This document shows positions 13,081-13,808 of a stretch of 64,000 nt of DNA, piece by piece; the first letter of the stretch is position 1, and each line of letters starts with the position of its first letter. The DNA is from Escherichia coli (GTDB taxonomy: Bacteria > Pseudomonadota > Gammaproteobacteria > Enterobacterales > Enterobacteriaceae). The DNA lies in the NCBI RefSeq assembly GCF_048403405.1, contig NZ_CP183129.1; one strand, 5' to 3'. Made by a program: the position numbers and the translations under genes. The notes under the pieces were generated by a model. The model ran no database searches. It was given only the letters and a program-made list of their open reading frames with translations, and was not told the origin of the DNA.

Positions 13081-13392
13081 ATGCACATCATTTCGAAAGC
13101 GCCATTTGAAGAGTGTGCGCGCAAATATCCTAACGACGCTCTGGCTCTACACTCATTGTATCGGGTTATTAAGGAAACGGATTTTTCTACACCAGAAGAA
13201 ATGCGAACGGCGTTTCCTAACCTCGACAATTTTAAATATCGCAACAAATGGTACGTTCTGGATGTCGGCGGGAACAATCTTAGGGTTATTGCCTACATAA
13301 ACTTTGTTAATAAGCGGTTCTTTGTGAAGCACATAACGAATCACGCAGAGTATGACAAACTGACACGTTACTACAGAGAGAACAAAGAATGA
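13081..13392 (+). CDS. HigB-family toxin (RelE/ParE superfamily mRNA interferase), 103 aa
   Basis: MHIISKAPFEECARKYPNDALALHSLYRVIKETDFSTPEEMRTAFPNLDNFKYRNKWYVLDVGGNNLRVIAYINF... shares the FPxLDNFKY...VGGNxLRV pattern of E. coli HigB (YgjN) as I recall it; toxin-first order; ATGA overlap with the downstream gene. Confidence 0.75.
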   Translation: MHIISKAPFEECARKYPNDALALHSLYRVIKETDFSTPEEMRTAFPNLDNFKYRNKWYVLDVGGNNLRVIAYINFVNKRFFVKHITNHAEYDKLTRYYRENKE

Positions 13393-13808
13393 CTGCTAAT
13401 GCTGCACGCGCTGTTAAAGCAACAAGAGAACTGGTCAATGCAGTCCCCTTTCTGGGAGGCAGTGACTCAGAAGATGATTATCGTGAAGCACTGGAACTGG
13501 TCGAATATTTGATTGAAGAAGATGACACCAATCCACTTATCGACTTTCTGGCGAGCCGCATTGCAGAATATGAAAACAACAACGAAAAGTTTGCAGAGTT
13601 CGACAAAGCCGTTGCAGCAATGCCGGTTGGCGTGGCGTTACTTCGTACGCTGATTGATCAACATAATTTGACCTATGCGGATTTGAAGAACGAAATCGGC
13701 TCTAAATCTCTGGTCAGTCAGATTTTGTCTGGGCAACGATCCCTGACGATATCCCATATTAAGGCACTTTCAGCCCGATTTGGCGTTAAGCCGGAATGGT
13801 TTCTTTGA
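13389..13808 (+). CDS. HigA-family antitoxin (HTH, Xre-like C-terminal domain), 139 aa
   Basis: ...AVPFLGGSDSEDDYREALELVEYLIEEDDTNPLIDFL...IGSKSLVSQILSGQRSLTISHIKALSARFGV resembles E. coli HigA (YgjM); start codon overlaps the toxin stop. Confidence 0.75.
   Translation: MTANAARAVKATRELVNAVPFLGGSDSEDDYREALELVEYLIEEDDTNPLIDFLASRIAEYENNNEKFAEFDKAVAAMPVGVALLRTLIDQHNLTYADLKNEIGSKSLVSQILSGQRSLTISHIKALSARFGVKPEWFL

Follow-up and report, generated by a model that had tools for sequence, protein, structure and literature searches.

Two small toxin-antitoxin operons are the closest described relatives of the gene pair that we report on here, a higB-higA pair located between hycI and ascB in a stretch of 64,000 nucleotides of Escherichia coli DNA (contig NZ_CP183129.1). 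By "the window" we mean this whole stretch. The nearer relative is SehA/SehB of Salmonella enterica serovar Typhimurium (STM4031/STM4030.S), and the other is HigB/HigA of E. coli K-12 (YgjN/YgjM, at the fadH-rlmG locus; PDB 5IFG, 6KML and 5YCL). A 2026 study of SehA (PMC12817084) found it to be without endoribonuclease activity. According to this study, it binds the double-stranded RNA-binding domain of RNase III and keeps the enzyme from cutting the 16S leader in vitro, pre-16S rRNA builds up, and the toxicity of SehA depends on RNase III. Alanine at any of Y53, D61, H88, Y91, K93, T95, Y97 or Y98 abolished the toxicity (PMC12817084). In K-12 the higBA promoter is repressed by HigA itself and requires Lon for its induction (PMC2814082). 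The HigA proteins of E. coli and Shigella have an N-terminal neutralising/dimerisation domain and a C-terminal helix-turn-helix (HTH) (PMC7160566). A 2013 paper on SehAB is flagged as retracted and we did not rely on it.

We conclude that the pair in the window is very probably a type II toxin-antitoxin operon that was acquired horizontally and is still intact, and that it belongs to the SehAB-type subgroup of the HigB (PF09907)/HigA (Xre-HTH) family. A preliminary description, made from the sequence alone, had called it a HigB/HigA-type pair. That assignment stands, with the refinement that SehA of Salmonella is a nearer relative of the toxin, at 58% identity, than K-12 HigB is, at 39%. The description had also given two overlapping open reading frames (ORFs) of 103 and 139 amino acids, toxin first and joined by ATGA, and we found them exactly so (Table 1). 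Both ORFs are on the same strand and the 4-bp ATGA is common to the two, which suggests that translation of higA is coupled to that of higB.

For the toxin, the Pfam search returned HigB_toxin (PF09907) with an E-value of 4.6e-23, residues 22-93 lying on positions 4-73 of the 74 in the model. No other Pfam family was reported for it, even at E-values up to 10, and PF05015 is thus unmatched. Residues 1-100 align without gaps to the K-12/Shigella HigB structures 5ifg_A, 6kml_A and 5ycl_B with E-values of about 1e-21 (7e-22 for 5ifg_A). The motifs FPNLDNFKY and VGGNNLRV, which had been pointed out as HigB hallmarks, are both there. When we searched proteins with the toxin, 120/120 homologues among the matches listed carried PF09907.

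To compare the toxin with SehA residue by residue, we read SehA off a contig of Salmonella Infantis that bears the annotation STM4031/STM4030 and confirmed it via the residue numbering of PMC12817084. All eight residues on which SehA toxicity depends (8/8) are in the window toxin at identical numbering. K-12 HigB has 4/8 of them (Y53, H88, Y91, T95) and is without D61, K93, Y97 and Y98. In the open-access literature that we searched, none of the papers stated the catalytic residues of K-12 HigB or of the PF09907 family.

The antitoxin aligns over residues 9-138 with K-12 HigA (PDB 5ifg_B, E 2.5e-35), to which it is 47% identical; its identity to SehB is 45%. Pfam places an Xre-type HTH_3 domain at residues 85-138 (E 7.9e-9), and the GSKSLVSQILSGQRSL motif is found, so the C-terminal HTH that had been proposed for the partner protein is borne out, in a full-length homologue of K-12 HigA. 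By alignment, residues from about 1 to 80 would be the neutralising/dimerisation domain and residues 85-138 the Xre HTH. The counterparts of the eight SehB residues that were mutated in PMC7160566 (Y32, L42, L52, I60, S107, L121, L129 and F140) are all invariant in the alignment (8/8). Among E. coli alleles of higB and higA nearly all differences are synonymous, and against the Pantoea ortholog the ratio of nonsynonymous to synonymous substitution rates (dN/dS) is 0.05 for higA. Both genes are under strong purifying selection.

The pair is not new. It belongs to a known family that is already annotated in many E. coli genomes, as had been expected of it. RefSeq names WP_000547555.1 a "type II toxin-antitoxin system HigB family toxin" and WP_000126294.1 a "helix-turn-helix domain-containing protein". 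In UniRef, the representative of the cluster with the exact toxin sequence is HIGB_ECOL6, and the exact antitoxin sequence is named "Antitoxin HigA". CFT073 encodes the identical toxin protein. The UniRef clusters at 90% identity have 443 members for the toxin and 952 for the antitoxin, and at least 1000 contigs carry each exact sequence. In this region the window and the chromosome of E. coli TUM1886 are 100% identical, and the RefSeq record of TUM1886 gives the gene order hycI, WP_000547555.1, WP_000126294.1, ascB.

Table 1. Features of the higB-higA locus, in window coordinates.
Feature	Positions	Strand	Details
higB/sehA-like toxin gene	13081-13392	+	ATG start; 103 aa; WP_000547555.1
higA/sehB-like antitoxin/repressor gene	13389-13808	+	ATG start; 139 aa; WP_000126294.1
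Upstream segment, allele-specific	12915-13077		163 bp; takes the place of the 253-aa gene and the usual higBA leader
Inverted repeat ACGGGTGTTTACA-TAT-TGTGAACACCCGT	12971-12999		13-nt arms, 92% complementary; 3-nt spacer
Candidate HigA operator core GTTTACA-TAT-TGTGAAC	12977-12993		palindrome, 7-3-7
Candidate sigma-70 promoter	12986-13014	+	-35 TTGTGA (12986-12991, right operator arm); 17-nt spacer; -10 TACTAT (13009-13014)
Shine-Dalgarno AAGGAAG	13069-13075	+	5 nt ahead of higB ATG; read from sequence
REP-like hairpin (GCCCGATGCGCAACGCTTATCGGGC core)	13827-13867		between convergent higA and ascB; inverted repeat, 15-nt arms

SehA/SehB resembles the window pair in most of its design. Its toxin is also a PF09907 protein of 103 amino acids with the same numbering, the operon is toxin-first and overlapping, the antitoxin has the same two-domain layout with the conserved residues given above, and the sehAB operator has the same 7-3-7 geometry (GTTTTCA-N3-TGAAAAC). 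The differences are in the setting and the details. sehAB is near fdhE, with genes for a yiiD-like thioesterase and for an alpha/beta hydrolase on its two sides, whereas the window pair is at hycI-ascB; SehB has 142 amino acids against 139 for the window antitoxin; and sehAB has two operator copies with central dinucleotides TT/AA where the window has one with TA/TG. Because of the different site, the 45% identity of the antitoxins and the operator differences, we take the window pair to be a paralogous member of the SehAB subfamily and not a positional ortholog.

K-12 HigB/HigA shares with the window pair the toxin family, the operon order, the ATGA overlap, the N-terminal neutralising domain and C-terminal HTH of the antitoxin, and an operator of the 7-3-7 form (GTTGCCA-N3-TGGCAAC). 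At the fadH-rlmG locus, too, the toxin is often truncated and the antitoxin retained. The K-12 proteins differ in sequence (39% and 47% identity), in locus, in having two operators and in the operator core, and we expect from the last of these that the window and K-12 repressors should be insulated from each other. HigB/HigA of plasmid Rts1/Proteus vulgaris shares the name, the toxin-first order, a toxin of BECR/RelE-type fold and an Xre-type antitoxin. However, the Rts1/Proteus toxin belongs to PF05015 and the window toxin to PF09907, the HTH of P. vulgaris HigA is N-terminal and not C-terminal, and SehA and P. vulgaris HigB are 25% identical.

PADLOC matched the toxin to PD-Lambda-2_A (E 1.2e-15) and the antitoxin to PD-Lambda-2_B (E 2.4e-14). 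PD-lambda-2 (Vassallo et al. 2022) does have an A component that is HigB-like and a B component that is HigA-like in its N-terminal part. For defence it needs its peptidase-fused B protein and also a third gene, which is related to a P4 phage antitoxin (PMC9519451). The window antitoxin covers positions 9-115 of the 402-position PD-Lambda-2_B profile and showed no peptidase domain in the Pfam scan. Without the peptidase domain and the third gene, we rejected membership in PD-lambda-2 and consider this a resemblance only.

Upstream of higB the window has an unusual segment, which has about 50% identity to the usual one and is effectively unrelated to it, save for one block of 19 bp. This 19-mer, GTGTTTACATATTGTGAAC at 12975-12993, is perfect in both E. 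coli upstream contexts. Pantoea brenneri has it as well, ahead of a higBA ortholog (77%/76% identical) that lies in another genomic neighbourhood, and the block is thus conserved across three otherwise unrelated upstream contexts. In a collection of species-representative genomes the 19-mer has 5 matches; we examined the Pantoea brenneri one, and the other four are in metagenome-assembled genomes and Clostridia. The palindrome within the block, GTTTACA-TAT-TGTGAAC, fits a pattern GTTNNCA-N3-TGNNAAC that has its sole exact match in the 64-kb window at this place. The pattern recurs upstream of K-12 higBA as GTTGCCA-ATC-TGGCAAC (L007:1957-2100) and upstream of sehAB as GTTTTCA-ACT-TGAAAAC, in two copies (L017:2427-2481), and the orthologs in Salmonella prophages have two operator-like sites per copy, 38 bp apart. 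Given this conservation, GTTTACA-TAT-TGTGAAC is likely the HigA operator. The central dinucleotides may set the specificity of each paralogue, as a simple code that insulates paralogous repressors.

A tentative sigma-70 promoter overlaps the right arm of this operator. The upstream regions of the JS316 type and of the Salmonella prophages likewise have a -10-like hexamer (TATAGT and TATACT, respectively) at a distance of 17 nt. In higB itself, the differences between the window and the common allele are concentrated at the beginning, within ~80 bp of the start, which points to recombination with a diverged copy of higBA as the probable origin of the window's upstream segment.

To see how widespread the pair is, we counted its genes in 5426 complete E. 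coli genomes. higB is present in 1091/5426 (20%) and higA in 2508/5426 (46%), so 1417/5426 (26%) have higA without higB, an orphan antitoxin. The remaining 2918/5426 (54%) have neither gene, and both are absent from K-12 and O157:H7. All copies of higB and higA are single and chromosomal, with 0 on plasmids. Upstream segments of the window type are in 343/5426 (6%). The pair is therefore established as accessory and not core, in line with the strain-variable islet that had been suggested from a K-12 gap of about 150 bp between hycI and ascB. The gap measures 158 bp in K-12 MG1655, with no gene in it, and 972 bp in the window, where ~970 bp had been given (hycI stop at 12914; ascB, convergent on the minus strand, with its stop at 13887). 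In O157:H7 FRIK2533 it is 123 bp, again without higB or higA. The G+C content of the islet is 43.9%, compared with 51-54% in the flanking hycI and ascB.

In most carriers hycI and higB are separated by a third gene, which codes for a 253-aa hypothetical protein (WP_001026446.1; L003:569-1330 in JS316 and L013:37467-38222 in CFT073). With at least 80% of its length covered, this gene is in 1463/5426 genomes (27%). The protein has the UniRef label of a periplasmic or exported protein and gave no match in Pfam, PHROG or PADLOC. CFT073 has the three-gene form, with a toxin protein identical to that of the window. On the other side of the pair, CFT073 (L013:35145-36996) is without the ascBFG operon, and higA is followed there by a gene for a 142-aa hypothetical protein and then by hydN. 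The right-hand side of the hycI hotspot is variable too.

The toxin-less alleles have two distinct deletion junctions. In either case the final ~35-40 bp of higB survive, and with them the stretch just upstream of the higA start. In FDAARGOS_1059 (L004:1535-1954) and MS20654 (L005:1530-1949), the orphan higA has 8 synonymous and 0 non-synonymous differences from that of the window. Because the protein is unchanged and the differences are synonymous only, the antitoxin seems to have been kept by selection after the loss of the toxin. The K-12 and O157 gaps hold the first ~46 bp and the last ~30 bp of the 253-aa gene and then go directly into post-higA sequence. Since remnants of both ends survive, we ruled out the K-12 gap as a virgin insertion site for the 253-aa gene; as regards this gene, the gaps in K-12 and O157 are deletion scars. 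For higBA itself, the K-12 gap does not tell insertion from a deletion mediated by microhomology (ACTGA).

Outside E. coli, we found homologues at 56-78% identity across the Enterobacterales, for example in Klebsiella aerogenes, Kosakonia, Cronobacter, Mixta, Salmonella, Xenorhabdus, Photorhabdus and Brenneria. Some of the relatives are in phages. A pair that is 69% identical adjoins the cI/Cro genes in the immunity regions of Salmonella lambdoid prophages (L014-L016:3001-3728), and Cronobacter phage JK004 has a copy that is 77% identical (MZ188976.1:39918-40226). The toxin also matches phrog_5734.

Between higA and ascB there is no third ORF, as only 78 bp are available and these hold a hairpin that resembles a repetitive extragenic palindromic (REP) element. 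Folding of 13806-13886 gave -26.6 kcal/mol (z -2.3), and the hairpin is a probable shared transcript end or stabiliser for higA and ascB. It is also kept in the K-12 and O157 gaps, where K-12 has an additional REP copy adjoining it, and we therefore count it as a backbone element and not as part of the islet. A permissive Rfam scan gave no match in 12800-14000.

We picture the pair as working in the following way. A promoter overlapping GTTTACA-TAT-TGTGAAC would drive higB and then higA, with the ATGA overlap providing translational coupling. A dimer of HigA would bind the toxin with its N-terminal domain and the palindrome with its C-terminal HTH, and would in this way both neutralise the toxin and repress the operon. 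When HigA is depleted, presumably by Lon/Clp proteolysis as in the K-12 paradigm, free toxin would shut down translation and so halt growth. The two genes of the window pair, their family membership, the conservation of their residues and operator and their accessory distribution are direct observations. What we infer is that the toxin is toxic and is neutralised, that the operon is repressed, that proteolysis is the trigger, and what the target is.

Several points weigh against this reading. The toxin is deleted in the 1417 genomes with an orphan antitoxin, so it is dispensable and possibly costly. The candidate promoter has 8/12 matches to the consensus, which is weak, and a promoter/terminator scan did not call it (its sole calls were inside coding sequence and we disregarded them). 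There is no second operator upstream of higB at up to 2 mismatches, where two are present at K-12 higBA, at sehAB and in the prophage copies. NCBIfam gave no meaningful match for either protein, and the open-access literature that we searched held no published experiment on the hycI-linked pair. With regard to the target, the RNase III mechanism comes from a single 2026 study of a protein that is 58% identical (PMC12817084), and K-12 HigB, which is also a PF09907 protein, cleaved translated mRNA in vivo (PMC2814082). In addition, the Y53A and Y91A mutants of SehA still bound RNase III (PMC12817084), and conservation of these residues is therefore no proof of a shared target.

What the toxin acts on is the part of our reading that has the strongest competitor. 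Since SehA is the nearest characterised homologue, we slightly favor a SehA-like route through RNase III and would give it about an even chance. The competing view, which we consider a serious possibility that falls somewhat short of that, is that the toxin acts in the classical manner of K-12 HigB (YgjN), as a ribosome-dependent mRNA interferase that enters the A site and cleaves mRNAs as they are translated, with neutralisation and autorepression unchanged. Membership in PF09907 fits this view, as does the fact that the toxin aligns over its full length with the structure of K-12 HigB (E 7e-22). K-12 HigB cut only mRNA that was being translated (PMC2814082), a 2025 survey lists the PF09907 family under ribosome-dependent mRNA degradation (PMC11980606), and ribosomes were absent from the in vitro RNase assay of SehA (PMC12817084). 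On the other hand, the toxin is 39% identical to K-12 HigB as against 58% to SehA and has D61, K93, Y97 and Y98, residues that are required in SehA and missing from K-12 HigB, and the SehA-dependent 5' ends in Salmonella fall in rRNA leaders and not in coding regions (PMC12817084). As the toxin is closer to SehA than to K-12 HigB, the HigB label makes the default assumption of an "mRNA interferase" mechanism look safer than it is. We would go further only tentatively, and think it possible but somewhat doubtful that the "mRNA interferase HigB" of the hycI locus is a SehA-type inhibitor of RNase III and not an RNase, with a mechanism conserved in a subclade of PF09907 that spans Enterobacterales and phage-borne copies, and that orphan HigA has been kept because it is a regulator in its own right or gives immunity to incoming phage-borne toxin copies.

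The other alternatives concern what the pair is for, and we consider all of them less probable than an intact operon of the SehAB type. One is that it is a selfish, addictive module that brings no benefit to the host and is eroding by deletion, with the window as one stage that is still intact. The series of alleles at a single site, from the three-gene form through the window form and the antitoxin-only form with its two junctions to the K-12/O157 gaps with their scraps of a neighbouring gene, is what such erosion might leave behind. Loss of the toxin first would be the sole non-lethal route, and 1417 genomes have indeed lost the toxin, while 54% of all the genomes are without either gene. 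This reading is doubtful to us, as purifying selection acts on higB and higA in the genomes that have them and the orphan HigA is an identical protein with synonymous changes only, so that it is apparently still functional. An anti-phage role for the pair is plausible by analogy, and the adjoining cI/Cro genes of the 69%-identical prophage orthologs, the 77%-identical copy in phage JK004, the phrog_5734 match and the low G+C all suggest a link to phages. The PADLOC matches point the same way, since PD-lambda-2 defends against lambda-vir (PMC9519451). That abortive infection or superinfection exclusion is the selected role, in a phage- or prophage-derived module whose toxin is triggered by infection, is still somewhat unlikely in our judgement, although it would fit either target: the islet is without phage or mobility genes and lies outside any defence island, and both the peptidase-fused B protein and the third gene that PD-lambda-2 requires are absent here. 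It is very improbable that the pair is an inactive remnant with intact ORFs but without expression or toxicity. A promoter that is weak by consensus and a single operator are compatible with such a remnant, but the frames are full-length, the functionally tested residues are all conserved, dN/dS is far below 1, and CFT073 and TUM1886 encode one and the same toxin protein.

We also searched the open-access literature for work linking higB or higA with hycI or ascB and found none. One study could be taken for a test of this locus, as Norton and Mulvey made a delta-higBA mutant of CFT073 (PMC3464220). The primers for this knockout (Table S3) encode the K-12-type CYIREVMTHKEYD and RFGISPALFID, which puts it at the fadH-rlmG locus and ruled it out as a test of the hycI locus. 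The fadH-rlmG locus of CFT073 keeps only an orphan higA (PMC7232551), and the intact hycI-linked pair of this strain is not among the toxin-antitoxin loci tested in PMC3464220.

As a discovery the pair carries little weight, since the family is well described and already named in RefSeq. Its value lies in the SehA-like placement, in an operator pattern that is family-wide, and in an orphan antitoxin that is unchanged in a quarter of E. coli genomes. CFT073-like strains have two loci of the higBA family, and claims that HigBA is dispensable in uropathogenic E. coli omit the one at hycI. The transfer of function from K-12 HigB, when the nearest characterised relative SehA reportedly works otherwise, is an annotation risk that can be tested. 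Finally, the site is a natural decay series of a toxin-antitoxin pair, from full to toxin-less to an empty scar, and is useful for asking why antitoxins outlive their toxins.

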